Assembly: GCA_964016885.1 (NCBI GenBank)
Contig: OZ024749.1
Coordinates: 1,984,001-2,048,000, forward strand
Length of the DNA: 64,000 bases
Direction of reading: 5' to 3'
Source of the DNA: Eledone cirrhosa
Lineage: Eukaryota
Shown here piece after piece: positions 71-52,504 of the stretch. The translations under genes were made by a program, and so were the position numbers. Position 1 is the first letter of the stretch; every line of letters begins with the position of its first letter. The notes under the pieces are model-generated. The model had not been told where the DNA came from, searched no databases, and worked only from the letters and a program-made list of their open reading frames with translations.

Positions 71-657
71 TACTGGTAACATGTATCCCAGTACAACCTG
101 TCTCATGGTCGGGTCGTTGGCGACTAAACTGGCAACCCCACCAAGGTTTCTTGGTGAGGAGGGTGGCTTTGGACATCCTGCAGGACTAAAAACAAAACCT
201 GTCAAAGGGCAAAGGAGCTCTTAAGAGTCAATGGCCATCCAAAATCACTGGGAGAGATGACCCCTTAGCCTTTGTCAAGGCAGAATTCTAGGAGAAGGAA
301 AACTCTGATATAACACCTGCAACTCTGATGGTATCCAATGATGTTGACTTGTTCTTCTTTTTGGTAAATATCTTGGTTAAGAGAGTGGGACTGGCTTTGT
401 GCAGTGCCTTTGCTCACTATAAAAGCTTCACGGCACAGGCATTGCTTTATATCTGGAGATCTCTCTGCACTTGTCGTCACATGGTACCATGGGTCCAGCA
501 CTATGTGTCAATAATTGTCACAAGTGTAGTGTTTGTACCAGAGTTTTCAAGTCGCTGGCTGGACTAAAAAGTCACACTCGTTCAGCGCATCGGTTGGGGT
601 TCTCCTACATGGATATAAAGTAGTGGCCGTACTCGAAAACGAGTTGGCAGCCACCAT
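71..657 (+). mobile_element. Bipartite non-autonomous RTE-derived element, family A (slightly 5'-truncated)
   Basis: RTE-type 5'UTR motif CTAGGAGAAGGAAAACTCTGATATAA. The 3' part encodes a C2H2 finger ([24 protein letters not shown]) like RTE ORF C-termini. Terminal stem-loop ACTCG-AAAA-CGAGT followed by an (ATGT)n tail. Near-identical copies at 19189 and 43147. Confidence 0.8.
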
Positions 658-752
658 GTATGTATATATGTATGTATGTATATATGTATGTATATATATA
701 CATATATTTATATATAGGTATATATATATATATACATATATTTATATATATG

Positions 753-874: not shown

Positions 875-1343
875 TTCTTCTGGTTTTATAATTTCACAAA
901 GTTTTCCCAATAGAGAGAGAGAGTCGGTTTCTAACATAGATACAAGACTCTCTCATTGGAATTTACACAACATCAACTAGGTAGATATGTATGAATGCAT
1001 GCATGTGTAGATATGGATGTTATTGTATGTGTGGATGTGTATGTTTCGAGTTGTATGTGTGCATATGTATATGTTTTGTATCTGTACATGTGTATATGCA
1101 GTTATTAGATGCAGAATTTTTGGAATGTTTTACATATGTTTACTGTACCATTAATGGATTGTACTTGTAGTTTCCTAACTAGTTGTGTTCTTTCTGTTCC
1201 TGTGAAGCCTAGCTTCTCAAGATTTGTATTGAGGCAGTTACTAACATATCCTAGTGCCCCAATAATCACAGGCATACATCTGAAGGTGTAAACAGGGTGG
1301 AGTATCTGCAGAATACTCATCAGTTCTGCATAAATATTCTCCT
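875..1343 (-). mobile_element. 3' fragment of a second R4/Dong-like RLE retrotransposon subfamily
   Basis: Translation ENIYAELMSILQILHPVYTFRCMPVIIGALGYV...ICKTFQKF* is homologous to the C-terminus of the 1445-4354 ORF but has a different 3'UTR; bounded by (CATA)n on both sides. Confidence 0.8.
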
Positions 1344-1363
1344 TATGTATGTATGTATGTATG

Positions 1364-4354
1364 TTTTCTCTTTCTCTTAATTTCGAGTATATTTTTTTGA
1401 CCGGCCACCTTCCTGGTGGCAAGGTTGTAAAAGAAAAGAAATTGTCATCCCTTGAATCGCAAGAATGTTTTGCATATTTTGAAGGTGCCAGCTATCGCAG
1501 CCATTTGTAGACTATGAATTAGGGAGCTGCGCTTTTTGTCCGCAAATCCAAGTTCGGTCATACTTTGGTCCAAGCAGGTTGGTATATAACCCGTAGCACC
1601 AATAATGATGGGTATGAAGCTAAAGGTGTATCTTGGATACTGGATTTGTAAGCTCCTCATCAATGGTCCGTAGATGTCCTCCTTCTCCTGTATTTTTCTG
1701 ACAACGTTTACATCAAGTGGGCAGCTGATATCCACAACAGAACACGTTTTCAATGTGTGGTCCCAAACTACAATATCAGGCCGGTTGTGCTTTAATTTGG
1801 TGGCAGTTTTTATTTTCAGGTTCCACCAGTATTCCTTAGTGCCATCTGTCTCAATATATTCTTCCTCGTTTGTTGTTAATTTTGTTTTCCGAAGTGCGTT
1901 CCAGATAGTTCTAGCTATCCCATCGTGTCTCATGGGGAGGTAGTAGCGAGATGACATTCTTTCGCAGCTGGCAACAATGTGGCTTACATCCTCGATCTTT
2001 GTTTTACATAGCCTACATTTATTGTCAGCTGCTGGCCCTCCTCTTTTGTGCAGCAGATATTTGGTAGGGAGTTCTTGTTCCTGTATTGCATAGAGATATC
2101 CCTCAAGGTGTGATGTCATAAACTTGTCGGAACTCCATGCCAGGCTTTTTGAGTGGTTTATCCCCTCTATGGTCTGTGTTTTACGCCTCAAGTATCCATG
2201 CACAACTTTCTCTGTAAATTGGTCAATTTTTTTTTCTTGTTTGAACATTGAATAGGATCTTCCGATTTCTCTGGGTGAGAGATTTATATCAGGCTTTATT
2301 CCATATCTCTCCTCCAGATCAGTCGCTATTCTAATGATATTTCTTTTTTCATGCTCATAAACCTGAGCAAGATGGTCGCCAACCTTTTTCCTCTGTTGAA
2401 GGTGTTGCTTCAGTGTTACTATCCGGGTCTCATATGTTGTTAATATTGATTTTAGACCCCGGCCACCTTCCTTGCGTGAGAAGTATAGCCTATCCACATC
2501 ACCATTGATGTTAAAGTTCCCAGTAACACTGAGAAGTTTACGAGTTCTAACATCCATCTCACTTAGTTCTTGCAATGACCAGTTCAGTAGGCCAAATGTT
2601 GGCGTTATAATTGGCACAGCATAGGTATTGTGGGCAATGTATTTGTTGTATGCTGACAGTTCTGATGACCATATTTTTTTTACTCTTCTGAGGTATTCAG
2701 TTCTGGTTCTCTCCTTATTTATGGGTCCATCATATCTGACATTCTCATCCTGTCCAAGATATCTGTAGTTGTCACCTGACTGCAGAGGTTGTATTGTCAG
2801 GCCGTTCATATCTAGATTTCTAGAGGAGGGCACAGCTCTTCCACGTTTTACTGCCAAATATGCACACTTGGACTCACCAAATTTCATTTTGATGTCGGTT
2901 GAAAATTGTGTAATGAGGTCCAATTGTTTCTTGATGTCATTGATATTTGGCCCATACAACTTCAGGTCATCAACAAAGAAAAGATGGGAGATACTTCTGG
3001 GCCCACTTCTTTGTCCACCTTGTTTCCTGAGTAGGTAAGATAGTGGATTCAGTGAGAGAACGAAGAGTAGTACCGACAAGCTATCACCCTGAAAGATGCC
3101 CTTCTGGTAATGTATCCTATCAGTCTTAACCTGCTCCTTCTCACCTCTAAGGATCAAATTGGTGTACCAGTTCTTGGTCAGGCGTTCAACAGCAGCTACT
3201 AATGGTTGTGGGACTTTAGCTAACTGTAAAGCCTTAATAATCCACCCATGAGGTACACTATCAAATGCTTTTTGATAGTCCAGCCACACGACAGTCATGT
3301 TTCTGCGATTCTTTGTTGTTTTTTCCTGAATCATTTTGTTAGTTAGTAGGTGATCTATGCAACCCCACACCTCCCTCTTTCCACCAGCTTGCTCAGGTGT
3401 TATGATGTTGTTGGTAGCAAAGTGATCCTGTAAGAACAGGTTAAGGCACCCAGTATATAATTTATACATGATGTTTTGGCAGGCAATTGGGCGGTAATTT
3501 TTAGCAAGGGTGGTTTGGCTATTTTTGGGAATGAGGAGAGTAGTGGCAGTTGATAACCATCTGGGCAGTTCTTGTGTGCCCTTAATGGTTTCTGTAAACA
3601 GCCGTATGAGATCTTGCCGATAGAAAGTGAAATTCTTCAACCAGTATCCTGTAATGAGGTCTGGGCCTGGCGATTTCCTATTCGACATTTTCTGTAGAGC
3701 TGTTTCCAGTATTGACCCATCTATGTCATATTGTTTTGTCTGGACATGTTGGCAGTAGTCCTGTTCCAGTTGTTTTAGCCAATTAGCTTGTCTGTTGAAT
3801 CCGTCATCCGTTTCCCATACAGATCTCCAGTAGTTCTCAACCTGTTCTTTTGAAGGGGTGTCGTTTACAGGGATTGAGCTTTTGCCACTGAAGCTGCGAT
3901 AAACTGATTTAGGATCTCTGGCAAACAATCTATTTAGCACTTGTCGTTTATGGGCTGTTGACTTATATTTTAGTCTTTCTGTTGTAGCTGTGAGTTGTTG
4001 TTTCAACTGGTGTAATTTGGAGTTCAAAGTTTTAAATTTGGTATCTCCAAATCGTCTCTCTAACTTTTTCTTTAGGTCTTCCTGGTGTCGTGTGAAGTTT
4101 CTCTCTATGTTGCATTTCATAACGACTGCGATGTGTGAGATACTTCGTCTCAGGGACAAAATTTTGGTTTTTAAATTTCGCATCCACGCTGGTTCAGGCT
4201 TTCTGTTTGTATCTTGATTGCGTGGTTTTAGATGTGTGTTATATGATAGCAATGTGACAGCTGAAACATATAACAAAACATTGAGCGTTTCAAATGTCGT
4301 TTCTACACCTTTAGATCGTATAGCCTTCAGATAATTGCCAGCTATTTCGTTCAT
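1364..4354 (-). mobile_element. R4/Dong-clade RLE non-LTR retrotransposon, 5'-truncated
   Basis: Single long ORF plus ~80 nt 3'UTR; (CATA)n at both junctions (1344-1363 and 4354-4410). Confidence 0.9.
1445..4354 (-). CDS. Reverse transcriptase + CCHC zinc knuckle + restriction-like endonuclease (~969 aa, no stops)
   Basis: RT motifs NYRPIAC, WLDYQKAFDSVPH, GIFQGDSLS, HLFFVDDLKLY, YRYLG, RLYFSRKEGGRGL; CRLC..H...C knuckle; RHD and RPDIV..D endonuclease motifs. The track's N-terminal extension to 4444 is microsatellite plus neighbouring element. Confidence 0.92.
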   Translation of the reverse strand: MNEIAGNYLKAIRSKGVETTFETLNVLLYVSAVTLLSYNTHLKPRNQDTNRKPEPAWMRNLKTKILSLRRSISHIAVVMKCNIERNFTRHQEDLKKKLERRFGDTKFKTLNSKLHQLKQQLTATTERLKYKSTAHKRQVLNRLFARDPKSVYRSFSGKSSIPVNDTPSKEQVENYWRSVWETDDGFNRQANWLKQLEQDYCQHVQTKQYDIDGSILETALQKMSNRKSPGPDLITGYWLKNFTFYRQDLIRLFTETIKGTQELPRWLSTATTLLIPKNSQTTLAKNYRPIACQNIMYKLYTGCLNLFLQDHFATNNIITPEQAGGKREVWGCIDHLLTNKMIQEKTTKNRRNMTVVWLDYQKAFDSVPHGWIIKALQLAKVPQPLVAAVERLTKNWYTNLILRGEKEQVKTDRIHYQKGIFQGDSLSVLLFVLSLNPLSYLLRKQGGQRSGPRSISHLFFVDDLKLYGPNINDIKKQLDLITQFSTDIKMKFGESKCAYLAVKRGRAVPSSRNLDMNGLTIQPLQSGDNYRYLGQDENVRYDGPINKERTRTEYLRRVKKIWSSELSAYNKYIAHNTYAVPIITPTFGLLNWSLQELSEMDVRTRKLLSVTGNFNINGDVDRLYFSRKEGGRGLKSILTTYETRIVTLKQHLQQRKKVGDHLAQVYEHEKRNIIRIATDLEERYGIKPDINLSPREIGRSYSMFKQEKKIDQFTEKVVHGYLRRKTQTIEGINHSKSLAWSSDKFMTSHLEGYLYAIQEQELPTKYLLHKRGGPAADNKCRLCKTKIEDVSHIVASCERMSSRYYLPMRHDGIARTIWNALRKTKLTTNEEEYIETDGTKEYWWNLKIKTATKLKHNRPDIVVWDHTLKTCSVVDISCPLDVNVVRKIQEKEDIYGPLMRSLQIQYPRYTFSFIPIIIGATGYIPTCLDQSMTELGFADKKRSSLIHSLQMAAIAGTFKICKTFLRFKG

Positions 4355-4412
4355 GTATGTATGTATGTATGTATGTATGTATGTATGTATGTATGTATGT
4401 ATGTATGTATAT

Positions 4413-4934
4413 ATCGGGTCACTTTTCAGTGCAACTGGTAACATCTAACCCAGTACAACCTGTCGCATGGTCGGGTCGTCGGCGACTAAACCGGCAACCC
4501 CACTAAGTTTACTTGGTGAGGAGGGTGATTTTGGACACCCTGTAGGACAAAAAACAAAACCTGACAAAGGGCGGAAGAACACATAATAGTCAACGGCCAT
4601 CCGAAAGTGTGTAAATATGTATATACACATGTACTGCGCGGTTAAACCACTGGGAGTGAGAGACCCCTAGCCTTTGTCAGGGCATTCTTCTAGAAGCCAT
4701 CTCAGGAAACTGGGTTAACTCCGATATAAAACCTGCGGCTCAGTTGTTACCGATGATGTTGATCTTTTCTTCTTTTCGGGTTATAGCTACTGTCGCTCAG
4801 AGAGTGGGATTGGCTCAGTGCACAGTCTTTCCTCACTTTAAAAAATATCTTCATGCACAGGCATTGCACGATAGAATTAATTAATAATGGTATATCGTGC
4901 AATGGCCATACTCGATAACGAGGGGGCAGCCATC
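4413..4934 (+). mobile_element. Bipartite non-autonomous RTE-derived element, family B
   Basis: 5' region homologous to family A; ends CTCG-ATAA-CGAG-GGGGCAGCCATC then (ATGT)n; copies at 4983, 43741, 62197. Confidence 0.78.
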
Positions 4935-4982
4935 ATGTATGTATGTATCTGTATGCATCTATGTATGTATGTAAGTATGTAT

Positions 4983-7029: not shown

Positions 7030-9375
7030 AAATACAGTGAATGGGAAGAGTGAACTGGTCAGGTATAGGCATACAAATGCTAATACAAACTGACCAGGAG
7101 TGCATCGAGGCAGTCCCAGATATCACAGACCTCGAGGAAGGACTCCAACTCCCTATAAGCGTCGAAGGAAAGCGCCCAAAGTGCTATATCTGTGTGAAGA
7201 AGGGTCACCTCAGGGTCTTCTGTCCGCAGAAGACAGCCAAGAAGAGTGTCCCCCTCCTTCCGCGGCCTGACCACTGCTACCAAGAGCAGGGCAGGTAACA
7301 GAGGCAGAAGACTCTTCCATGGTGAGTAGGAGGGCAACGTCCGTGGCACCAATACCAAAGTCACGGACAACTAAAACAGCGGAACAGTGGTGGCAACACC
7401 AACAGTCGCAATAGCTACACCGGCGGCAAAGTCGCCGGAGCGGGCTCCACTACCACCACCAACAGCCGTGGAGGACATACCCCTCCCAAACGCCACGGAA
7501 TCCGACATAGAGTCTGAGGCGGGAGTGAAGTGGTAAACGGTCTGCCACAAAAAACAAAAACAAAAAAAAACACTTAGCTTCACCCTCCAAAAGCGAAGGC
7601 AAACATAGACGGGTAAAGGCTGCAAGGCGACTCGCAGCAACGCGACCAACAACCACCACCACCAGCAGCATCACCACAAACATCAACATCGCAAACACAA
7701 GACAAACAACCCCCGCCCCTCTAAAAAAAAAAACATTACACACCCATAAACATGGAAAATCAAGAACTCTTAGAACATATAAAGCACCACACAGGCATTC
7801 GGGACAAACATTACTACACCCCACCAACACCAAGAACTTTCCCGAAAAATATAAAGATTATTGAAATCAAAATAGAACATTATAAACTTTTAAAAGAAAA
7901 ATTCCCCAATGCAGTTGGAGAGTTAGTTAGAAAGCTAGAAGAGGCGTTTAGGACAGGCATCGCAACCGACGTGCTTGCGGCGAGATTGGCACTCGACCAA
8001 TTCTTCAACGCAAAGCATGATGGAGAAAAACTGGAGTAAGGTGACGAGTAGGGTGGCCTCTCTCACCCAGAATTGGGCCGAGAGGAGGCTCTCTCTGAAA
8101 GGTCGGGCGGAAGTGGCGAATGCGTACATAGCGTCCATCATCTGCTACCGCCTGACCGTCGTACCTTGCCCCCGCCCAACTCTGACCAAAATGAAGCGCC
8201 TTCTCTTCCGCTTTTTGAGGAAGGGACGTGCTCCCATGGTCAGACGATCCATTTGCTGTCAAACCCGTTGCGTGGACGACTATGCATGCCGTGGTTGATG
8301 ATGCGCAAACAAGCGCTGAGGCTGCGACAGCTGTGGTCGCCGTTTGCCAGACGCGCCATTTCCCAGCTCGTGTCCTTGACGGAGCTGCAGTCCTGGATCA
8401 GGAAAAGACCGAGGGTTAGCGCTTGGAAGCTGGAATATGTCCAAGCGCTCACCGCTCTCTACCAGCTGGGCACCAATATCGGTGGAACATCCACCTCGGC
8501 GTTCTATAGAGGGCTAGTGGAGGGAAAGAGCGACGACGTTCTCGGGGAGACCCTGGGCGTCGAAGACGATCAGCTGTTCGCTCTCTTCAAGAGAGCTTTC
8601 AGACCGGGGCCTATGGACAGCTTCCCAAAATCCCTGGCCTGGCAGTGCTACCGGGGAGCCTTGCCGGTTCGGGATAAGCTCTACAGGCACGGAGGAGCTG
8701 TCAGCCGAGCCTGTCCGAGATGCGCGCAGGGCGACGAAACCGTCCTGCACGCACTCGTTCAGTGCCCGAGGTTTGCTGACTAGTGGAGCTATGTCGAATA
8801 GCTGCTGTCGCGTGTAGGACGGATCCGGTTATCGACTGAGTCCATTCTGTAGATAGCCCCGCCATCTTCCTTTAAAGAGGAGGAAGGGCAGGCAGTTTTT
8901 ATCTGCCTGGTGGCCATGGCGAAAGAGATTGTGGTTGAAAGGGTTGAAGACGGACACTTTCCTCTTCGGCCAATCCCTGATTAACTTTTTCAAGCTTCAC
9001 TTGAAAAGGAAAATCAGGGTGGAGAGATAAGTGGTGTCTTCTAGTAAGTTTGTTGAAATGTGGGTGAAAGTGGCGAGTCTGGTCCGAGTGAACGGGCCCG
9101 CTCTGTGTATGCGCCTGTAGACTGAGGAGTGGAAAAACTGAGAGAGGGCGCTTGCCCTAGTGGTCAGGGTGCCGTGGCCTTTTGGTGTGGTTTTCGCCAC
9201 GAGTGACCCTCGGAGGTTTCCTCTTTTTTGTTTGAAATCTTTTGATTTCTAGCCGAATTTTATTATAACCTGTTTACACGACCAAAACCCACTTTGTATC
9301 GTCCTGTACTGTTCTGTGCCGTGTCTAATGTTTTTCTTCGTGTCAGCCCTTGTGGCCAATAAAGAAATCATTATT
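7030..9375 (+). mobile_element. Tx1/L1-clade LINE relic with large internal deletion
   Basis: ORF1 fragment with CX2CX4HX4C knuckle (VEGKRPKCYICVKKGHLRVFCP). ORF2 C-terminal fragments (WAERRLSLKGRAEVAN; YRGALPVRDKL..CPRCAQGDETVLHALVQCP, zf-RVT-like). AATAAA near 9357. Stops and frameshifts; no APE or RT core seen. Confidence 0.8.
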
Positions 9376-18379: not shown

Positions 18380-18623
18380 GTATATATCTGTGTGGTTGTG
18401 TGTGAGGCCGGTTTCAATCGGGGGTACCCACAGTATGTAAGGTACTCAATACGTTAGTAGAATCTATACAACAAATCTAATATAGAAATGGCTTCTACAG
18501 CACTAGAACTATTTTATTTGAAGGATGTAATAAGGAAAGCTTTCCTGATGATTTCCTTTGAATTTCTGTTATGTAGAAGCCACTTCTATATTAAATTTAT
18601 TACATATAAATATATGTATGTAT

Positions 18624-19124
18624 GTCAGGTCGCTCTCGAGTGCTACTGGTAACGTATGTACAGCCTGTCTCATGGTCAGGTCGTCGGCGACTAAACCAAC
18701 AACCCCCACCAAGCTTGCTTGGTGAGGAGGGTGACATTTGGACAACCTGCCGGATGAAATACAAGACCAGGCAAAGGGCGGAGGAACTCAGCAGAGTCAA
18801 CGGCCATCCAAATAGCATATATATTTTTTTTACACCTGGGAGTTAAAGGCTTTCTAGGAGAGGGAAACTCTGAAGAAAAAACCTGCAGCCTCGGAAGCAT
18901 CCGATGATGTTGACCAGTTCTCCTTTTCGGCCAGTGTTTTCGATGGACAGAGAGTGGGATTGGTCGAGTGCAAGGCCTTTCCCCACTTAAAAAAACCTTC
19001 AAAGCGCAGGCATTGCTTGTTCAGGATATATTACAGGTTCGTATGTTGGCCGTAGTCTAAAAGTGCACCGAATTCTGTAATCTGATAGGCGATGTCATTA
19101 CTCTTAGCAGAGTTTGCAGCCATC
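18624..19124 (+). mobile_element. Bipartite non-autonomous RTE-derived element, family C
   Basis: 5' region homologous to A and B; different 3' end ACTCT-TAGC-AGAGT-TTGCAGCCATC then (ATGT)n. Confidence 0.72.
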
Positions 19125-19188
19125 ATGTATGTATGTATGTATGTATGTATGTATGTATGTATGTATGTATGTATGTATGTATGTTTAT

Positions 19189-19796
19189 GTCAGGTCACCA
19201 CTTGGTGCTACTGGTAACATGTATCCCAGTACAACCTGTCTCATGGTCGGGTCGTTGGCGACTAAACTGGCAACCCCACTAAGGTTTCTTGGTGAGGAGG
19301 GTGTCTTTGGACATCCTGCAGGACTAAAAACAAAACCTGTCAAAGGGCAAAGGAGCTCTTAAGAGTCAATGGCCATCCAAAATCACTGGGAGAGATGACC
19401 CCTTAGCCTTTGTCAAGGCAGAATTCTAGGAGAAGGAAAACTCTGATATAACACCTGCAACCCTGATGGTATCCAATGATGTTGACTTGTTCTTCTTTTT
19501 GGTAAATATCATCTTGGTTAAGAGAGTGGGACTGGCTTTGTGCAGTGCCTTTGCTCACTATAAAAGCTTCACGGCACAGGCATTGCTTTATATCTGGAGA
19601 TCTCTCTGCACTTGCCGTCACATGGTACCATGGGCCCAGCACTATGTGTCAATAATTGTCACAAGTGTAGTGTTTGTACCAGAGTTTTCAAGTCGCTGAC
19701 TGGACTAAAAAGTCACACTCGTTCAGCGCATCGGTAGGGGTTCTCCTACATGGATATAAAGTAGTGGCCGTACTCGAAAACGAGTTGGCAGCCACC
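19189..19796 (+). mobile_element. Family A RTE-derived element, apparently full length
   Basis: Near-identical to 71-657 with an extra 5' hairpin; flanked by (TATG)n. Confidence 0.82.
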
Positions 19797-19815
19797 ATGT
19801 ATGTATGTATGTATG

Positions 19816-20299
19816 TTATCTTTTTCTCTTAATTTCGAGTATATTTTTTTGACCGGCCACCTTCCTGGTGGCAAGGTTGTAAAAGAAAAGAAATTGTCAT
19901 CCCTTGAATCACAAGAATGTTTTGCAAATTTTGATGGTGCCAGCTATCGCAGCCATTTGTAGACTATGAATTAGGGAGCTGCGCTCTTTGTCCAAGTTCA
20001 GTCATACTTTGGTCCAAGCGGGTTGGTATATAACCCGTAGCTCCAATAATGATGGGTATGAAGCTAAAGGTGTATCTTGGATACTGGATGTAAACTCCTC
20101 ATCAATGGTCCGTAGATGTCCTCCTTCTCCTGTATTTTTTTAACAACGTTTACACAAGTGGGCAGCTGATCTCCACAACAGAACACGTTTTCAATGTGTG
20201 GTCCCAAACAACAATATCAGGCCGGTTGTGCTTTAATTTGGTGGCAGTTTTTATTTTCAGGTTCCACCAGTATTCCTTAGTGCCATCTATCTCAGATAT
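19816..20299 (-). mobile_element. 5'-truncated copy of the R4/Dong-like element
   Basis: Matches ~1364-1855 (3'UTR plus RPDIV region); (CATA)n on both sides. Confidence 0.88.
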
Positions 20300-20439
20300 T
20301 GTATGTATGTATGTCTGTCTCAGATGTATGTATGTATGTATGTATGTATGTATGTATGTATGTATGTATGTATGTATGTATGTATGTATGTATGTATGTA
20401 TGCATGCATGCATGCATGTATGCATATATGTATGTATTA

Positions 20440-21840
20440 CACGGTGTAACAAAAAAACATGTTTTTCTCTGTTCTTGGCTTGTAATCACTTTTTTGTGTT
20501 GCTTAGGTCCCAAATAAATAAGAAAAAAGTGCTATTAAACAGTTAAAAGTTTGGGTGTGTAAAAATTCTAAGTTATTCACTAGAATTATTTGTATGCTGG
20601 ATTTTACGTTGTATGTAAGTTTAATTTGCTTATGTTAAACGATTTTTTTAAATATATGTTTCAGGTTAAATTAAAATTATAAAATAAAAAGTAATACCTA
20701 AAGAAAATTATAAAAGTGCAATAAAGAATAAAATTGTTAAAAAGTGGATTAAAGAGATTTATTGATACTGGATTTTCGCACCCTGAATAAAGGGTAAGTT
20801 GTGTTTTAAGCATTCGTCTCCAGGATGAAGCAGTGGAACTTGGTCAAGGAGGAAGTGCAGGTGACAAGTCAGAGAAGTCGACACGAACCTTTCTCAGGCT
20901 TTTACACTCTTAGGGATGGCCTCTGCTTCTGCCATGACGTGCCTGAACTGTTTGACGTTATTGGGGTGCAGTTTGTGCCCAAGGAGGTGCGGCTATTTAT
21001 AGACAGCTCCACCACAAGTTTGAAGGCTGTCCTCCTCCACAATGGAAACAAGTTACCGACACTGCCCCTAGCTCATTCAGTCTGCCTGAAGGAAGATTAC
21101 TACAGTGTGAAAGTCCTTTTGGAAGCTCTGCAATACAACCAGTACAATTGGGAAATCATTGGAGACTTCAAGATGGTGGCTTTCCTGATTAACATCCAAG
21201 GAGGCTTTATCAGATTCCAATGCTTCCTCTGCCCTTGGGACAGCAGAGCCACCTCTGACCACTAAAAAAGAAAGAACTGGGAGCAGCGAACAGAATTTGT
21301 AGTTGGGACCCGGAACGTCATATGGGAGCCACTGGTTGATCCCAGGATTGTGCTCATGCCTCCACTGCACATTAAGTTGGGGTTGATGAAGCAATTTGTG
21401 AAGGCTCTCAACCAAGAATCAGCCGCTTTTAAGTACCTTCTTGAATTCTTCCCCAAGTTATCTGAGGCCAAAATCAAAGGTGGAATTTTTGTTGGACCTC
21501 AGATAAAGAAGGTGTTTGACTCTACCGAGTTCTCCAATAAGCTCAATAGGATTGAGAGAATAGCATGGAACTGTTTCAAGGCAGTTGTTAAGGGCTTCCT
21601 GGGCAACTACAGAGCTGAAAACTACCAGCAATTGGTGCAGGATCCGATAAATGCTTTTGGCGCCATGAGATGCAGGATGTCGCTTAAACTCCATATGCTG
21701 GTCGTTCACCTGGAAAAATTCAAGGACAATATGGGCGCCTACTCAGAAAAACAAGCGAATGATTCCACCAACATGTGAAAGAGATAGAGCGGAGGTACCA
21801 GGGCCACTACAATGAAAAAATGATGGGGGACTATATCCAC
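20440..21840 (+). mobile_element. Chapaev3-like DNA transposon relic with transposase pseudogene
   Basis: Starts TTA|CACGGTGTAAC. Translation RLFIDSSTTSLKAVLLHNGN..GDFKMV..CFLCPWDSR..PPLHIKLGLMKQFVKAL..MSLKLHML. In-frame stop at 21263 and frameshift near 21752; right terminus not found. Confidence 0.72.
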
Positions 21841-26340: not shown

Positions 26341-27592
26341 CTTGTTGTTGTTGTTGTTGTTGTTGACGTTGTGTTGTTGTTGTTGTTGTTGACATTGTTG
26401 GTGTTATTGTTGACGTTGTGGTATTGTTGTTGTTGTTGACGTTGTGGTGTTGTTGATGTTGCTGGTGTTGGTTTTGTTGTTGGTGATGGTGTTGTCTAGT
26501 TGGTGACGGTAGTGTTGTTGGTGATGGTAGTGTTGTTGTTGGTGATGGTAGTGTTGTTGTTGGTGAGGGTAGTGTTGTTGGTGATGGTAGTGTTGTTGTT
26601 GGTGATGGTAGTGATGTTGTTGTTGGTGATGTTAGTCTTGTTGTTGTTGGTGATGGTAGTGTTGTTGTTGGTGATGGTAGCGATGTTGTTGGTGATGGTA
26701 GTGTTGATGGTGATGGTAGTGTTGATGGTGATGGTAGTGTTGTTGTTGGTGAGGGTAGTGTTGTTGGTGATGGTAGTGATGTTGTTGGTGATGGTAGTGT
26801 TGATGGTGATGGTAGTGTTGATGGTGATGGTAGTGATGTTGTTGGTGATGGTAGTGTTGATGGTGATGGTAGTGTTGATGGTGATGGTAGTGTTGTTGTT
26901 GGTGATGGTAGTGTTGTTGTTGGTGATGGTAGTGATGTTGTTGTTGGTGATGTTAGTCTTGTTGTTGTTGGTGATGGTAGTGTTGTTGTTGGTGATGGTA
27001 GCGATGTTGTTGGTGATGGTAGCGATGTTGTTGGTGATGGTAGTGTTGATGGTGATGGTAGTGTTGATGGTGATGGTAGTGATGTTGTTGGTGATGGTAG
27101 TGTTGATGGTGATGGTAGTGTTGATGGTGATGGTAGTGTTGTTGTTGGTGATGGTAGTGTTGATGGTGATGGTAGTGTTGATGGTGATGGTAGTGATGTT
27201 GTTGGTGATGGTAGTGTTGTTGTTGGTGATGGTAGTGTTGTTGTTGGTGATGGTAGTGTTGTTGTTGGTGATGGTAGTGTTGTTGGTGATGGTAGTGTTG
27301 TTGTTGTTGGTGGTAGTGATGTTGTTGTTGGTGATGGTAGTATTGTTGTTGTTGGTGATGGTAGTGTTGATGGTAATGGTAGTGATGTTGGTGATGGTAG
27401 TGATGTTGTTGGTGATGGTAGTGTTGTTGTTGTTGGTGATGGTAGTGTTGATGGTAATGGTAGTGATGTTGGTGATGGTAGTGATGTTGTTGGTGATGGT
27501 AGTGATGTTGTTGGTGATGGTAGTGATGTTGTTGGTGATGGTAGTGATGTTGTTGGTGATGGTAGTGATGTTGTTGGTGATGGTAGTGATGT
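26341..27592. repeat. Trinucleotide-based (GTT/GAT/GGT) compound tandem repeat
   Basis: 18-24 bp units such as GGTGATGGTAGTGTTGTTGTT. Confidence 0.9.
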
Positions 27593-28212: not shown

Positions 28213-29495
28213 GGACCCATCCCTCTCCAGACCACTGTACAGCCGGAACCTATCCCTCTCCAGACCACTGTACAGCCGGAAGCCATCCCTCTCCAGGCCT
28301 CTGTACAGCCGGAAGCCATCCCTCTCCAGGCCTCTGTACAGCCGGAACCCATCCCTCTCCAGACCACTGTACAGCCGGAACCTATCCCTCTCCAGGCCTC
28401 TGTACAGCCGGAAGCCATCCCTCGCCAGACCTCTGTACAGCCGGAAGCCATCCCTCTCCAGGCCTCTGTACAGCCGGAACCCATCCCTCTCCAGACCACT
28501 GTACAGCCGGAAGCCATCCCTCTCCAGGCCTCTGTACAGCCGGAAGCCATCCCTCTCCAGGCCTCTGTACAGCCGGAAGCCATCCCTCTCCAGGCCTCTG
28601 TACAGCCGGAAGCCATCCCTCTCCAGGCCTCTGTACAGCCGGAACCTATCCCTCTCCAGGCCTCTGTACAGCCGGAACCTATCCCTCGCCAGGCCTCTGT
28701 ACAGCCGGAAGCCATCCCTTTCCAGGCCTCTGTACAGCCGGAAGCCATCCCTCGCCAGGCCTCTGTACAGCCGGAAGCCATCCCTCTCCAGGCCTCTGTA
28801 CAGCCGGAACCTATCCCTCGCCAGGCCTCTGTACAGCCGGAAGCCATCCCTCTCCAGGCCTCTGTACAGCCGGAACCTATCCCTCGCCAGGCCTGAGTAC
28901 AGCCGGAAGCCATCCCTCTCCAGGCCTGAGTACAGCCGGAAGCCATCCCTCTCCAGGCCTCTGTACAGCCGGAAGCCATCCCTCTCCAGGCCTCTGTACA
29001 GCCGGAACCTATCCCTCTCCAGGCCTCTGTACAGCCGGAAGCCATCCCTCTCCAGGCCTCTGTACAGCCGGAACCTATCCCTCTCCAGGCCTCTGTACAG
29101 CCGGAAGCCATCCCTCTCCAGGCCTCTGTACAGCCGGAAGCCATCCCTCTCCAGGCCTCTGTACAGCCGGAACCTATCCCTCTCCAGGCCTCTGTACAGC
29201 CGGAAGCCATCCCTCTCCAGGCCTCTGTACAGCCGGAACCCATCCCTCTCCAGGCCTCTGTACAGCCGGAACCCATCCCTCTCCAGACCTCTGTACAGCC
29301 GGAACCTATCCCTCTCCAGGCCTCTGTACAGCCGGAAGCCATCCCTCGCCAGACCTCTGTACAGCCGGAAGCCATCCCTCGCCAGGCCTCTGTACAGCCG
29401 GAAGCCATCCCTCTCCAGGCCTCTGTACAGCCGGAAGCCATCCCTCTCCAGGCCTCTGTACAGCCGGAACCTATCCCTCTCCAGGCCTGAGTACT
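28213..29495. repeat. 33-bp GC-rich minisatellite, ~39 copies
   Basis: CAGCCGGAAGCCATCCCTCTCCAGGCCTCTGTA with a few interspersed variants. Confidence 0.95.
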
Positions 29496-30792: not shown

Positions 30793-32820
30793 CTAGACGT
30801 AACTCTTAATTTGAACACAGGATGGATACGACCCTTCCACAAGATAAATGAGAACCTTACCTATAATAATTACAACTCGAATCACCCACTTTCCATGATC
30901 AAATCGGTTCCCCGTAGTATTTCCCTCAGAATCTCTCGCCTATCGTCAGATTTTCAGTGAACATGCTGAATACTATAATAACGCATTAAGGAATTCAGAC
31001 CACCGGGGATACAATAGAATACATTGATAAGAATCTCCACAACACACATAGCTGCACACGCAATCAAAGAATATATAACTGGGGTACAGAAATACAAGCG
31101 CACACACACAGTACCACCAGACATATTAATAATAGAATATCATCACCAAACTCAAATAAATTACGTTGTAGACAGTATATCTGGTATAATCCCATGTTTA
31201 ATGCTTCGATTAATACAAAACTATCTCTTTTATTCTTTAAGTTAATTAACACACATTTCCCTAGTTCCCATAAATACAGTAAGATTCTAAACACTAAGAC
31301 TATTAAGCTACATACTCCACTGCACCAAACCTAGAAGCACACATAAAAAAAACTTAACTTAAAGCGATTATTAAACAACACTACAAAACAAAAAAAATTA
31401 GACACAGATGGGCATAACGTAATATCAACTTCCCAACCACCAAATGGGAGACAAGTATTACACAACCCACCTGAACTGTTATCCCAACCTATCCATGGTA
31501 CAGTTGTTACCCATAACAAAAACTACAATTGCCACCTACTTGAGAGATGCCCTTTGAAGAATAAATGCCTGGAGTCCAACATTGTTTATCAATGCACTGT
31601 CGAATCGAACGACCAGAAATGGTATTACATCGGGTCTACCACTACCTCCTTTAAATTTCGCTGGTATCGTCATCGATTTTCGATTAAACATCCTGAACAT
31701 CGTTATGTAACTACACTCGCTAATAAGACCTGGCAACTCCGTGAATACAACCAGCAGTTCACCCTAAAATGGGGTAAATTATCAAGCGCTAGTGCATATC
31801 AGAGTGGATTGAAATACTGCAGATTATGCAACCTTGAACTCTTTTATGTCTTGAAATCTAAAAACAATTTACTAAATGACAGAATCGAACGATCGTTATA
31901 CTGCAACCACAAACTGAAGGCTAACTTTTCTCACTATAAAAGTAACTTAACATAATTTGAACTCGAGACTATTACACCACTTTCTCGCTAATTTCACTCA
32001 ATACTTACTTCCTAACTATATCACCCCCCCCCCCCGCCTACACAATACTAACCAGTACCTTACTTATCGTAATAAAGGTATACTTTAGTACGATCAGCAA
32101 ACTACAACTATCAACTCGGTGTATATTACCTTTCCTTCCTCTTCTCTTAACTTTTTTCTGTCCCCTCTCTCTCTTTCTTTATCTCTCACGCCCTCTGTCT
32201 ATCTCCCTCCTTCTCTACATCAATTAACCTGTCTCTGTGGCAATAAATAATTCCAAACAATAAATAATTCCAAACTTGACAATATCAACACAATGCCTAA
32301 GTTGTCACTTTGAGAGTAAGCAGTATAATAAAACCCCTTGTTTGACCCCATTTAGATTAAGCTATATGTATTCTTCAAACCACTCTCTCCCATTTCTCCT
32401 ACCCCTACATATCTCTCTCTCTCTCTCTCTCCCTTCTTTCTCTCTTCCTTTCTACTCTATCTTCCCCAATTACTGCCTTTAAGAAATATAAGTAAACCAT
32501 GATTCAGCCATTCGTTCTGAAGATTTGGTGATACGAACAGCATTTTAAAATTGAGTATCTGCAAATTAATAACTACCAATTTGCACCTAGCATGACTAGG
32601 CTGTGTAACTACTAAAGAAACATTTGTAAACACTTGGAATAAATTACCTTTTTATGATGTTTACCTGTTTTATTAATCATTCTTTATCTCCACTCCGGAA
32701 TATAGAAGAATCGGAAACCAAGTTTATTTAACCGTTCTTTTGTAACTCGTTGAGTAACCCCTCACCGTACGTCGACTCTATCTAGTGTAGTAATTAACCA
32801 ATACTGCATTCAAGATAATC
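30787..32820 (+). mobile_element. Penelope-like retroelement relic (RT C-terminus + GIY-YIG endonuclease + 3' region)
   Basis: FLDVTLNL..SNHP..RISRLSS remnants followed by the 31554-31955 GIY-YIG frame; flanked by (TA)n; 3' boundary approximate. Confidence 0.75.
31554..31955 (+). pseudogene. GIY-YIG endonuclease domain of a Penelope-like element
   Basis: CLESNIVYQC..YYIGSTTTSFKFRWYRH..LKW..CRLCNLE..LLNDRIE..CNHK. Confidence 0.8.
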
Positions 32821-42251: not shown

Positions 42252-42756
42252 CATACATATACACATATATATATATATGTTTAAATACGCATGCTTATAT
42301 ATACATGCATGCATATGTATGTATACATATATATGCATATATTTATATGTATATACATTTCATATATACATATATATACACACACACATATATTTATATA
42401 TATGATATGTAGCCTCTTGGATTGTGTTCACCATTATTGTGTAACTATTATGCAATATACACCTGATGGTGTCGCCAGAATTCTACGTAATCTGGCCACT
42501 GAAATGTATATAGTGGTTACAGATGTAAAACTTTCAAGGAATTTAACCAATGCACAGGATATGGAGAAGAAACCGACACTTTCATTTTGTTTTGTCCGGG
42601 CTAAATTGTTTAATACCAGCACATAAGCCCGAACCTAGCACTAATAACTAAACCTGAGAAACACTGAATCACAGCACTTCGGCAGTGCCGAGAGATCATT
42701 GAGTGAGTGGGAAGATTCAACCTACTTGCAAAAATTATTGTTCGATACACTGGTAT

Positions 42757-44427
42757 AGGAGAAGGAAAACTCTGATATAACACCTGCAACCCTGATGGTA
42801 TCCAATGATGTTGACTTGTTCTTCTTTTTGGTAAATATCATCTTGGTTAAGAGAGTGGGACTGGCTTTGTGCAGTGCCTTTGCTCACTATAAAAGCTTCA
42901 CGGCACAGGCATTGCTTTATATCTGGAGATCTCTCTGCACTTGTCCTCACATGGTACCATGGGCCCAGCACTATGTGTCAATAATTGTCACAAGTGTAGT
43001 GTTTGTACCAGAGTTTTCAAGTCGCTGGCTGGACTAAGAAGTCACACTCGTTCAGCGCATCGGTAGAGGTTCTCCTACATGGATATAAAGTAGTGGCCGT
43101 ACTCGAAGACGAGTTGGCAGCCACCATGTATGTATGTATGTATGTATGTATGTATGTATGTATGTATGTCTCATGGTCGGGTCTTTGGTGACTAAACTGG
43201 CAACCCCACCAAGGTTTCTTGGTGAGGAGGGTGACTTTGGACATCCTGCAGGACTAAAAACAAAACCTGTCAAAGGGCAAAGGAGCTCTTAAGAGTCAAT
43301 GGCCATCCAAAATAACCGGGAGAGATGACCCCTTAGCCTTTGTCAAGGCAGAATTCTAGGAGAAGGAAAACTCTAATATACCACCTGCAACCCTGATGGT
43401 ATCCAATGATGTTGACTTGTTCTTCTTTTTGGTAAATATCATCTTGGTTAAGAGAGTGGGACTGGCTTTGTGCAGTGCCTTTGCTCACTATAAAAGCTTC
43501 ACGGCACAGGCATTGCTTTATATCTGGTGATGTCTCTGCACTTGTCGTCACATGGTACCATGGGCCCAGCACTATGTGTCAGTAATTGTCACAAGTGTAG
43601 TGTTTGTACCAGAGTTTTCAAGTCGCTGGCTGGACTAAAAAGTCACACTCGTTCAGCGCATCTGTAGGGGTTCTCCTACATGGATATAAAGTAGTGGCCG
43701 TACTCAAAAACGAGTTGGCAGCCACCATGTATGTATGTATGTCACATGGTCGGGTCCCTGCGACTAAATCGGCAACCCCACTAAGTTTACTTGGTGAGGA
43801 GGATGATTTTGGACACCCTGCAGGACAAAAAACCAAACCTGACAAAGGGCGGAAGAACTCATAAGAGTCAACGGCCATCCGAAAGTGTGTAAATTTTATA
43901 TACACATGTACCGCACGCTTAAACCACTGGGAGTGAAGGACTCATAGCTTTTGTCAGGGCATTCTTCTAGGAGAAGGCAACTCAGGAAACTGGGATGACT
44001 CCGATATAAAACCTGCGGATCAGTAGTTACCGATGATGTTGATCTTTTCTTCTTTTCGGGTTATAGCTACTGTCGCTCAGAGAGTGGGATTGGCTCAGTG
44101 CACAGTGTTTCCTCACTTAAAAAAATATCTTCATGCACAGGCATTACACGATAGAATTAATTAATTATTTCTACTCTTGGCACAAGGTCAGCAATTACCC
44201 AGTGCATTACTGGTACTTTACTTTATCGACCCCGTAAGGATGAAAGGCAAAGTTAACCTCGGTGGGATTCTAACTCAGAATGGCAAGGGCCGTAACTCTA
44301 TGCGTCAAAGCATAGCGTCCGACTCTCTACCGATACTGCCAATCCACCGCCCTTAGAATTAAATAATAATTATTAATAATGGTATATCGTGCAATGGCCA
44401 TAGTCGATAACGAGGGGGCAGCCATCA
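42757..44427 (+). mobile_element. Tandem array of RTE-derived elements A (42757-43125), A (43147-43726), B (43741-44427; SINE inserted at ~44165-44353)
   Basis: Head-to-tail copies separated only by (ATGT)n tails. Confidence 0.82.
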
Positions 44428-46300: not shown

Positions 46301-46312
46301 TATAATCCCCAG

Positions 46313-46888
46313 TGAATTGGCAGTATCGGTAGAGGGTTGGACGCCATGTTAGGGCGGTGGATTGGCAGTATCGGTAGAGGGTTGGACGCCATGTTAGGGC
46401 GATGGATTGGCAGTATCGGTAGAGGGTTGGACGCCATGATAGGGCGGTGGATTGGCAGTATCGGTAGAGGGTTGGACGCCATGTTAGGGCGGTGGATTGG
46501 CAGTATCGGTAGAGGGTTGGACGCCATGATAGGGCGGTGGATTGGCAGTATCGGTAGAGGGTTGGACGCCATGTTAGGGCGGTGGATTGGCAGTATCGGT
46601 AGAGGGTTGGACGCCATGTTAGGGCGGTGGATTGGCAGTATCGGTAGAGGGTTGGACGCCATGATAGGGCGGTGGATTGGCAGTATCGGTAGAGGGTTGG
46701 ACGCCATGTTAGGGCGGTGGATTGGCAGTATCGGTAGAGGGTTGGACGCCATGTTAGGGCGGTGGATTGGCAGTATCGGTAGAGGGCTGGACGCCATGTT
46801 AGGGCGGTGGATTGGCAGTATCGGTAGAGGGTTGGACGCCATGTTAGGGCGGTGGATTGGCAGTATCGGTAGAGGGTTGGACGCCATG
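46313..46888 (+). repeat. 45-bp tandem array (~13 copies) of the SINE 5' head
   Basis: TTAGGGCGGTGGATTGGCAGTATCGGTAGAGGGTTGGACGCCATG; the last unit runs into a complete SINE ending ~47040. Confidence 0.92.
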
Positions 46889-49227: not shown

Positions 49228-50835
49228 AGAGTTGTTCGGTGTTATAGCAGTGAAGTGATTAGCCAGAGTTGTGTGGTGTTGTAGTAGTGTAGTCATTAAC
49301 CAGAGTTGTGTGGTTTTGTAGTAGTGTAGTCATTAACCAGAGTTGTGTGGTGTTATAGTAGTGTAGTCATTAACCAGAGTTGTGTGGTGTTATAGCAGTG
49401 AAGTGATTAACCAGAGTTGTGTGGTGTTATAGCAGTGAAGTGATTAACCAGAGTTGTGTGGTGTTATAGCAGTGAAGTGATTAACCAGAGTTGTGTGGTG
49501 TTATAGCAGTGTAGTCATTAACCAGAGTTGTGTGGTGTTATAGGAGTGTAGTCATTAACCAGAGTTGTGTGGTGTTATAGCAGTGAAGTGATTAACCAGA
49601 GTTGTGTGGTGTTATAGCAGTGAAGTGATTAACCAGAGTTGTGTGGTGTTATAGCAGTGAAGTGATTAACCAGAGTTGTGTGGTGTTATAGCAGTGTAGT
49701 CATTAACCAGAGTTGTGTGGTGTTATAGGAGTGTAGTCATTAACCAGAGTTGTGTGGTGTTATAGCAGTGTAGTCATTAACCAGAGTTGTGTGGTGTTAT
49801 AGTAGTGTAGTGATTAGCCAGAGTTGTGTGGTGTTGTAGTAGTGTAGTCATTAACCAGAGTTGTGTGGTGTTGTAGTAGTGTAGTCATTAACCAGAGTTG
49901 TGTGGTGTTATAGCAGTGTAGTCATTAACCAGAGTTGTGTGGTGTTATAGCAGTGTAGTGATTAGCCAGAGTTGTGTGGTGTTATAGTAGTGTAGTCATT
50001 AGCCAGAGTTGTGTGGCGTTGTAGCAGTGTAGTGATTAGCCAGAGTTGTGTGGTGTTATAGCAGTGTAGTGATTAGCCAGAGTTGTGTGGTGTTATAGTA
50101 GTGTAGTCATTAACCAGAGTTGTGTGGCGTTGTAGCAGTGTAGTCATTAACCAGAGTTGTGTGGTGTTATAGCAGTGTAGTCATTAACCAGAGTTGTGTG
50201 GTGTTATAGCAGTGTAGTCATTAACCAGAGTTGTGTGGTGTTATAGCAGTGTAGTCATTAACCAGAGTTGTGTGGTGTTATAGTAGTGTAGTCATTAACC
50301 AGAGTTGTGTGGTGTTATAGCAGTGTAGTCATTAACCAGAGTTGTGTGGTGTTATAGCAGTGTAGTCATTAACCAGAGTTGTGTGGTGTTATAGCAGTGT
50401 AGTCATTAACCAGAGTTGTGTGGTGTTATAGTAGTGTAGTGATTAGCCAGAGTTGTGTGGTGTTATAGTAGTGTAGTCATTAACCAGAGTTGTGTGGTGT
50501 TATAGCAGTGTAGTCATTAACCAGAGTTGTGTGGTGTTATAGTAGTGTAGTCATTAACCAGAGTTGTGTGGTGTTATAGTAGTGTAGTGATTAGCCAGAG
50601 TTGTGTGGTGTTATAGTAGTGTAGTCATTAACCAGAGTTGTGTGGTGTTATAGCAGTGTAGTGATTAACCAGAGTTGTGTGGTGTTATAGCAGTGTAGTG
50701 ATTAGCCAGAGTTGTGTGGTGTTATAGTAGTGTAGTCATTAACCAGAGTTGTGTGGTTTTATAGTAGTGTAGTCATTAACCAGAGTTGTGTGGCGTTGTA
50801 GCAGTGTAGTGATTAGCCAGAGTTGTGTGGTGTTA
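49228..50835. repeat. 37-bp minisatellite, ~43 copies
   Basis: TTAACCAGAGTTGTGTGGTGTTATAGCAGTGTAGTCA. Confidence 0.95.
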
Positions 50836-51333: not shown

Positions 51334-52250
51334 TTATACTTTGGGAGGGTCACGCTGTCAATAAAAACACACACACCCGTTGGTATTAACTTCAATTTAA
51401 TATATTCAGTTGGATAGTTGATTCGATAACCGGATAGTGGTTTATATATTGTCAAAGCTCTTTCGTAACACATTCTCTGACCTCCTCAATGACTAGGTTT
51501 TTATTTTGTGTATCTTCTTTGTTCTGTCCTACACCATCTTGTTTTTATGTGTTGTGTGCTTAGTTTGTGCATGAGTTACATCCGGGTATGTGTGCGTGTG
51601 TGTGTTTATTTATTAATTTATGTGTTACTAGTTGGTTGTTTGCTATATCTGTGTGTGTCTGATTTGTTTTGTTAGTTTGTTTTTTTTGTGTCTGTATGTC
51701 TTCAGTTTGTCCTTAGTTACTAGTTGTGATGTTGCTATTCTGCTCATGTTTTCTGTTTAATTTTGGTAAGAGATCGTTTATATTTGTGGCTTCTGTGATT
51801 TGCCTGAGAACTGCATCTTTTCTCTGTGTGTGGATATTAACTTTTAACTCTATGTTCTCTAATGTGCCCCCATGTTCTATTTTGGCATGTTGGTGGAGTA
51901 CTGATGAGTTCTTCCCATCCTGGAGTTCTCGCCAGTGTTCACTTATTCTTTCTCCTATGTTACGGGTTGTTTCACCTCTGTATGTTATGTTCTTATTCCT
52001 ACACTGTCCCTCAGTACATCTTATGCTATATACTACGTTTCTAGTAACTGAGGAGGTCACAGAATGTGTGACGAAAGAGCCTTGACAATATTTAAATAAC
52101 CATCCGGTTATCGAACCAACCAACCGGAAATTTATAATAAATTGAAGTGAAAACCAACAGGTGCGTGTGTTTTTATTGGCACATGACCCTCCCAAAGTAT
52201 AAAAAATATCTGTTTCAACACACGTTTTCAGATAAGAAACCTTGCAAAAC
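51334..52250 (-). mobile_element. 5'-truncated Penelope-like element with inverted terminal repeat
   Basis: GIY-YIG-like frame (NVVYSIRC..YRGETTRNIGERISEH..LRQITEA..LNRKHE) at ~51713-52040. 3' repeat 51334-51495 (-) and inverted copy 52042-52205 (+), both with hammerhead-like motifs. Confidence 0.8.
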
Positions 52251-52504
52251 AAATTCAAAAACGAAATAGAGAGAGAGAGAGAGAGAGAGAGAGAAGGGGA
52301 TTCCAGTGCTAAAGAGGTACTTTATTTATCGACCTCGATGATAAATGAAGACGAAAGGCAAAGTCGACCTCTGTGTGATTTTAACAAACTAGAATTTTTT
52401 CAACACGCTGACGCGTATGTGTATGTGTGTGTATGTGTGTGCATGTATGTATATAGATTGTACACACAAGCGTAGAGAAGGTTAGACGATGTTTTCTGTA
52501 GTTT

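Follow-up and report, generated by a model that had tools for sequence, protein, structure and literature searches.

R4/Dong-like retrotransposon families that sit inside (CATA)n microsatellites of the Eledone cirrhosa genome

The window analysed here is a stretch of 64,000 bp of the Eledone cirrhosa assembly (contig OZ024749.1; G000:C9:1984001-2048000 in our numbering), part of a 3.0-Gb genome. It carries three minus-strand insertions, at 875–1343, 1364–4353 and 19816–20301, which belong to two families of retrotransposons without long terminal repeats (non-LTR elements). Family A is represented at 1364–4353 and 19816–20301, and family B at 875–1343. At both ends of each of the three insertions, the plus strand reads (TATG)n. 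The copies, their parts and the arrays around them are as follows (RT, reverse transcriptase; RLE, restriction-like endonuclease; UTR, untranslated region; SINE, short interspersed nuclear element).

659–874, no strand: mixed TATG/TA tract, the tail of a SINE-like repeat at 72–658; its pure (TATG)3 at 863–874 flanks the B copy on the 3' side
875–1343, minus strand: family B copy, the 3' 469 bp of an element of ~4,128 bp, 97.0% identical to a majority sequence made from ten B copies
1344–1363, no strand: (CATA)5 spacer that flanks the A copy on its 3' side and is what is left of the B copy's 5' array
1364–4353, minus strand: family A copy, 5'-truncated, bases 1,234–4,223 of the full element, 99.8% identical to the full-length copy L048
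1364–1444, minus strand: family A 3' UTR, with a purine-rich run at its end next to the array
1445–4354, minus strand: 969-codon open frame, residues 201–1169 of the family A protein
1448–1867, minus strand: RLE domain, RPD..(D/E)..K..Y, with the motif at ~1670–1783
1964–2017, minus strand: CCHC zinc knuckle by motif, C-x2-C-x8-H-x4-C
2756–3532, minus strand: RT core, Pfam RVT_1 (aa 275–533), E 2.6e-25
4354–4414, no strand: (CATA)n array next to the 5' end of the long A copy and bounded by a SINE-like repeat
19797–19815, no strand: 3' array of the third copy, the tail of the SINE-like repeat at 19187–19797
19816–20301, minus strand: older copy of family A (94.9%) with a truncated 5' end and small deletions
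20302–20437, no strand: 5' array of the third copy

A preliminary description of this DNA had reported three insertions from two subfamilies with CATA on both sides. The insertions and flanks were present, but the 'subfamilies' are two families with 45% identity over the protein. It had also noted that (TA)n is far more common in the window and hosts none of the copies, and this was borne out: (TA)n covers 4,282 bp and CATA/TATG 604 bp, and all three copies lie in (TATG)n. The 20-bp array at 1344–1363 is both the 5' flank of the 875–1343 copy and the 3' flank of the 1364–4353 copy. As this array is common to two copies, the window has just two independent arrays. The window on its own is weak evidence, and the targeting claim is carried by the genome-wide counts.

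The long A copy has 969 codons with no stop and retains the RT, the CCHC knuckle and the RLE motif. The copy is not full length, as it begins at base 1,234 of the 4,223-bp element and lacks the 5' UTR and the 200 N-terminal residues, including the Myb-like domain. Its ATG at 4354 was made by the junction (the A comes from the array and the TG from the element; full copies have GTG there). Without the 5' UTR and the Myb-like domain, this copy is likely a dead end even though its frame is open. At the third copy, a 10-nt duplicate of the 5'-most bases of the element was found at about 20314–20323, between two CATA runs.

Nine full-length copies of family A were found (4,210–4,224 bp). They were 99.4–99.95% identical, and the open reading frame (ORF) of 1,169 aa was intact in five of them. 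Copies of family B (~4,128 bp) showed a pairwise identity of about 97%. Family A is young and recently amplified, and family B is older.

Both are single-ORF RLE-type non-LTR retrotransposons with the domain order N-terminal three-helix domain, RT, CCHC and RLE. In the ORF of family A, Pfam identified RVT_1, followed by the CCHC and a PD-(D/E)xK-type RLE motif; no apurinic/apyrimidinic endonuclease (APE) domain was found by Pfam. The predicted structure of A (predicted local distance difference test, pLDDT, 85.7) comprised a three-helix N-terminal domain (helices at pLDDT 80–92), a disordered linker, the RT and a C-terminal nuclease. The top Foldseek matches of this model were R2 proteins (E 1e-33, template modelling score about 0.57). 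Residues 16–78 aligned with the corresponding region in the homologs from Bombyx, Pediculus and elsewhere, with a conserved W..W pattern, and no Cys/His finger was seen in this N-terminal alignment. Judged by the alignment, the N-terminal domain corresponds to the SANT/Myb-like region of R4/Dong elements (region named in the available text of PMC7998251). A fold search with the isolated N-terminus, whose model was of low confidence (pLDDT 57), gave a best Z of 5.1 and no Myb match. A 5' ribozyme of the hepatitis delta virus-like type is present in Dong (PMC3774820, available text). In our element, Rfam returned no family match apart from repeat-driven miRNA matches, and our own descriptor, run without a positive control, found none.

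The 3' ends of both families were counted by exact patterns over the whole genome. For family A, 2,951 ends ran straight into CATA and 372 into a base other than C. A further 33 ends had C followed by non-A and 165 had CA followed by non-T; these two counts are slight undercounts, and the class CAT plus non-A is left out of the tally. Array variants made up most of the 33 ends and most of the first 100 CA-non-T ends listed. When 30 of the non-C ends were inspected by eye, 29 were still CATA arrays with a variant first unit. For family B, 3,962 ends ran into CATA and 290 started with another base, and 19 of 20 inspected exceptions were still arrays. Two B copies (L140 and L142) ended in pure (CA)n instead of CATA. 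The 3' join of the full-length A copies was AA|CATA in all cases, and the phase of the 3' junction is fixed.

The 5' junctions were checked in 160 distinct A copies, mostly from contigs C1 and C2. The set combined best matches with the first 79 places of the CATA class on C1, 30 places of the non-C class and bystanders. The junction was resolved in 144 of them, and an array was scored if it lay within 20 nt. Most of the resolved copies (129 of 144) were 5'-truncated, with lengths of 39–4,113 bp and a fixed 3' end, which is the signature of target-primed reverse transcription. A CATA array lay at most 20 nt from the 5' junction in 135 of the 144 copies, including all 51 young copies (≥98.9% identity), and at 52 of 64 junctions of family B. 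The 5' flanks are thus not mostly unique sequence. The 129 truncated A copies cannot have had a 5' repeat on their RNA, and the arrays at truncated ends mean that CATA is more than a tail. One A copy (L057) had an inverted 5' array, with TATG on the sense strand.

The genomic background was sampled in 39 evenly spread 10-kb stretches (390 kb). In runs of at least 12 bp, TA accounted for 19,000 bp and CATA for 1,464 bp, which is a 13-fold excess of TA; in runs of at least 40 bp, TA was 30 times more abundant. CATA was the top tetranucleotide class in this sample. A third family of the same genome, family C (L286–L297; 1,943 candidate places), is Dong-like and 31% identical to A, and TAA followed all 11 analysed 3' ends of its 12 loci. 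With a TAA-flanked family in the same genome and the excess of TA, the CATA association is family-specific and not passive. At thousands of sites, families A and B lie within CATA arrays and face one way, and the genome-wide counts support the CATA targeting proposed in the preliminary description.

The arrays likely pre-exist the insertion, since locus-specific variants recur on both sides of the copies. The first variant unit of the 3' flank was found again in the 5' flank of the same copy in 15 of 95 testable copies, while 500 shuffled flank pairs gave a mean of 3.2 recurrences and a maximum of 8. Several young copies lay in higher-order arrays that were impure right up to both junctions.

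We consider it probable, at roughly 0.8, that the thousands of one-orientation insertions arise because the element protein binds pre-existing (CATA)n, nicks its TATG strand and primes reverse transcription there. The details of this scheme are modelled on R2 biochemistry. R2Bm makes contacts from −38 to −7, its zinc finger and Myb domains read a motif at −34 to −22, and mutations between +6 and +37 are tolerated (PMC10499050, available text). By analogy, the N-terminal Myb-like domain and the RT surface of A would hold about 26–38 bp of upstream repeat, and the downstream need would be just about 7 bp. The RLE, which itself would read the repeat, would nick the bottom strand across from TA^CATA, to within 1 nt of that step. 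The top strand would be cut within a few bases, and the duplication would be at most 2–6 bp. Family A would then have the same layout as R2, with a long upstream repeat held and little downstream.

Several measurements bear on this geometry. The upstream array of young A copies was at least 26 bp in 51 of 51 and at least 34 bp in 50; only 56% of background sites pass 26 bp upstream. The downstream array reached 26 bp in 36 of 51, with a minimum of 7 bp. A uniform-cut model with an upstream minimum of 26–38 bp fitted the simple loci (Kolmogorov–Smirnov p 0.08–0.35, n 26–29). The 5' join of full-length A copies was CA|ATGG in 11 of 15, two of which are probably a duplicated pair. A long target-site duplication as the rule was rejected: where a young copy has a variant within the first 12 nt, the duplication is limited to 2–8 bp, with exceptions in higher-order arrays and at L025. 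Every insertion would divide one array into two usable targets, and this would explain the stacks of A and B copies.

Some observations weigh against targeting of pre-existing arrays in this form. Nine A copies had no 5' array, all of them at most 97.4% identical to the young reference. With a tolerant measure, the 3' lengths fitted the unconditioned background better than the conditioned one. Family B showed no 5'/3' asymmetry (medians 59.5 vs 63, p 0.39; p 0.27–0.55 after filters), which makes the R2-like layout the least secure step. In young A copies, pure upstream runs had a median of 50 bp, vs 40 bp at 16 background sites with a 32-bp minimum. Occupied pure arrays had a total median of 77 bp, and a length above 60 bp was seen in 1 of 407 background arrays. 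Some lengthening at the 5' junction of A is possible. Two loci, L087 and L103, look as if CATA had been added after a duplication of 14–18 bp. An empty allele was not found: the contigs of run X1, which matches a unique flank of our genome with 0 differences over 570 bp, end inside the array. In addition, CTTA arrays were absent from the 390-kb background, so that strict CATA recognition was not separated from a relaxed CWTA recognition.

Part of these observations would also be expected if the element made much of the array itself. In this scenario, short CATA seeds are hit, a (CAUA)n RNA tail is copied at the 3' end, and CATA is added at the 5' end by template jumping or slippage. The rarity of long pure arrays in the background and the two loci with apparent duplication and added CATA fit this, as do the 5' runs of young A copies, which exceeded the 3' runs in length and purity (medians 49 and 23; n 47, p 0.0002). 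Duplicated element pieces at 5' junctions (2 clear cases in 144, plus window 20314–20323) show template switching. We nevertheless regard array building as unlikely. Locus-specific variants occur on both sides of copies, and some young copies, all of them in long arrays, have 5' arrays that are impure up to the junction. Furthermore, 3' flanks are as short as 7 bp, with variants already at position 5.

The nearest named homolog of A was an Argonauta hians protein (56% overall), which by itself points to a probable octopod host. Bombyx and Pediculus homologs matched A over 83–98% of its length with E values of about 1e-140 to 1e-150, while R2 gave just 1e-29. The RT trees contained 61 rows, were midpoint-rooted and were built without an R2/NeSL/HERO outgroup. 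A and B fell within a clade of 34 of the 61 rows (Shimodaira–Hasegawa-like approximate likelihood ratio test, SH-aLRT, 100; stem 0.46). The other clade, with about 30% identity to the A/B group, held the Bombyx and Pediculus proteins, family C and TAA-flanked elements. By these homologs, and with trees that included no protein named R4, Dong or Rex6, A and B are probably of the R4/Dong type, and, as far as these alignments show, they are a deep sublineage apart from the TAA-targeting Dong. Some relatives of unestablished target are closer to A than B is, and the place of B differs between alignments. A sister relation of B to CTTA-flanked elements did not hold up: the RT core gave it an SH-aLRT of 90, and it was lost with the longer alignment.

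Those CTTA-flanked elements came from a metagenome scan, in which 24 of 80 relative loci were examined. Within the A/B clade, L299 was flanked by CTTA at both ends, L298 at its 5' end and L301 at its 3' end. These are full or near-full relatives with 36–44% protein identity, and their contigs, whose names share a prefix, may come from one host. L300 and L306 of the same clade showed no array. Among the examined loci with ~30% identity, most ended in TAA, three in TA, CAA or TGA, and three had no array. No relative was found in the viral contig collection. The genome contig collection yielded 10 contaminant-like loci (24–39% identity), and none of the six inspected had CATA or CTTA flanks. Within our genome, an ancient relic, family D (L266–L285), had copies about 70% identical to each other and 31% identical to A over the C-terminus; its six copies with a visible 3' end all continued into degenerate CATA/CACA repeats. 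Family A was also seen in sequencing runs with other organism labels (X4, X5 and X7). In X4, the depth was low and the pieces were 98–100% identical; in X7, the depth was high and the array was joined to internal element positions. These may be due to close kin, transfer or contamination. No RNA run was listed as carrying the element, and runs X12–X20, with their small word shares, are left out of the analysis.

A relaxed or RNA-assisted targeting would account for both repeats. Here, the nuclease takes a degenerate unit such as CWTA, or the 3' end of the RNA, read through from the array of the donor copy, picks the site by pairing, and the target would follow whichever tetranucleotide the host offers. 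A, B and the relic D all end in CATA-type arrays in this genome, while CTTA is seen in three metagenome relatives scattered across the A/B sublineage; A and B do not group as sisters, and CATA is the commonest tetranucleotide class here, with CTTA unseen in 390 kb. Against this, the first unit after the A 3' end was CTTA in 3 and CGTA in about 19 of 33 cases, compared with 40:73 within arrays, which is a slight depletion of CTTA. The longer alignment did not fix where B falls with respect to the CTTA elements (approximately unbiased test p 0.039, with the group chosen after earlier trees). RNA pairing alone also leaves the long upstream arrays at truncated 5' ends unexplained. On balance, this explanation is improbable. 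That CATA is merely a 3' tail and that copies pile up passively in repeat-rich DNA can be dismissed: the genome is indeed rich in microsatellites, but at truncated 5' ends the copies join CATA arrays in a single orientation and the counts of 5' junctions refute it, TA is 13–30 times more abundant, and family C of the same genome sits in TAA.

The relatives also suggest, tentatively, a wider pattern. A and B would be members of a deep R4 sublineage, so far undescribed, whose elements target tetranucleotides and in which the landing repeat follows the host and not the tree, with CATA used by all the divergent families here and CTTA by all the equally divergent relatives elsewhere. If this is true, it would mean repeated retargeting to the dominant repeat of the host, or a CWTA-reading nuclease with an RNA tail that chooses the middle base.

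The CATA arrays are shared with a SINE-like retroelement, which lies in the window as follows.

72–658, plus strand: SINE-like retroelement of ~610 bp, on the strand opposite to the A and B copies
4411–4935, 18622–19125, 19187–19797 and 42756–43731: further SINE-like copies

Of 82 resolved 5' junctions of SINE-like copies, 60 lay in TATG arrays, and 27 of these 60 came from the main subfamily's 35 truncated copies (the sample is biased to loci near A/B). Beyond the 3' array of 153 A copies, a SINE-like 3' end was found in 37, a B copy in 31, an A copy in 17 and other DNA in 68; SINE-like tails thus host 37 of the 153 arrays. No autonomous partner long interspersed nuclear element (LINE) of the SINE-like element was found among 94 SINE 3' ends.

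Other repeats are present in the window. Judged by eye, some fragments read like other transposon proteins: 20810–21778 like a DDE-type protein, 31347–31955 and 51713–52321 like GIY-YIG/Penelope proteins, and 8052–8783 like a Tx1 C-terminus. Long minisatellites lie at 28217–29488 (33-bp units), 46312–46888 (45 bp), 49228–50835 (37 bp) and 26428–27592 (18–39 bp).

Microsatellite targeting by R4/Dong elements is already known, as is an ACAY target in another clade. The following comparisons draw on the available text of the sources cited. Target specificity occurs in most RLE clades (PMC4640811). Dong targets TAA in insects, molluscs and cnidarians, and R4/Dong elements have an N-terminal SANT/Myb-like domain and no N-terminal zinc fingers (PMC7998251). 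Dong of Bombyx mori, DongAg, DongBg and Darwinula Dong1/2 resemble A and B in the single ORF, the Myb/SANT-like N-terminus, the RT, CCHC and C-terminal RLE, and the insertion into microsatellites (PMC7998251, PMC3812793). They differ in the target, which is (TAA)n for Dong and (CATA)n for A and B; family C is like Dong in this respect. PMC3812793 lists ACAY (Waldo, R1 clade), AC, TC, TTC and TAA as targets and files Dong under APE types, which is contradicted by PMC7998251. The ACAY of Waldo (WaldoAg1/2, WaldoFs1) includes ACAT, which equals CATA (PMC3812793). However, Waldo has an N-terminal APE endonuclease and A and B have a C-terminal RLE; the two came to the same target independently. R2 (R2Bm, R2Tg) has the same fold as A and serves as the model for upstream recognition (PMC10499050), but it targets 28S rDNA and has N-terminal zinc fingers, which the N-terminal alignment of A lacks.

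In octopuses, Dong-R4 LINEs are abundant (O. vulgaris has 1,129 recently active insertions from five families; PMC13282606), a full-ORF Dong is present in O. bimaculoides (PMC9115989), and Dong-R4 is expanded in coleoids (PMC8967140). They resemble A and B in abundance, and the available text of these three sources states no target site for the octopus families. The literature searched yielded no R4/Dong element with CATA or CTTA as its target, and Repbase/Dfam entries or RLE surveys may list such targets. As far as that literature goes, a CATA-specific RLE lineage with CTTA-flanked kin appears to be undescribed.

Target switching in RLE retrotransposons has been studied almost solely in R2. 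The genome studied here combines R4-type families specific to TAA and to CATA, with near-identical, intact full-length copies, and CTTA-flanked relatives are one target base away at 43–44% protein identity. The set of A, B, C and the CTTA elements offers a direct test of which part reads the repeat (the Myb-like domain, the RLE or the RNA tail) and is likely a natural test of how a landing site changes. It also puts a dispersed-repeat-specific RLE enzyme on offer for insertion tools. A LINE class that has been called active in octopuses, with no target named, now has one for 7,500 copies or more.

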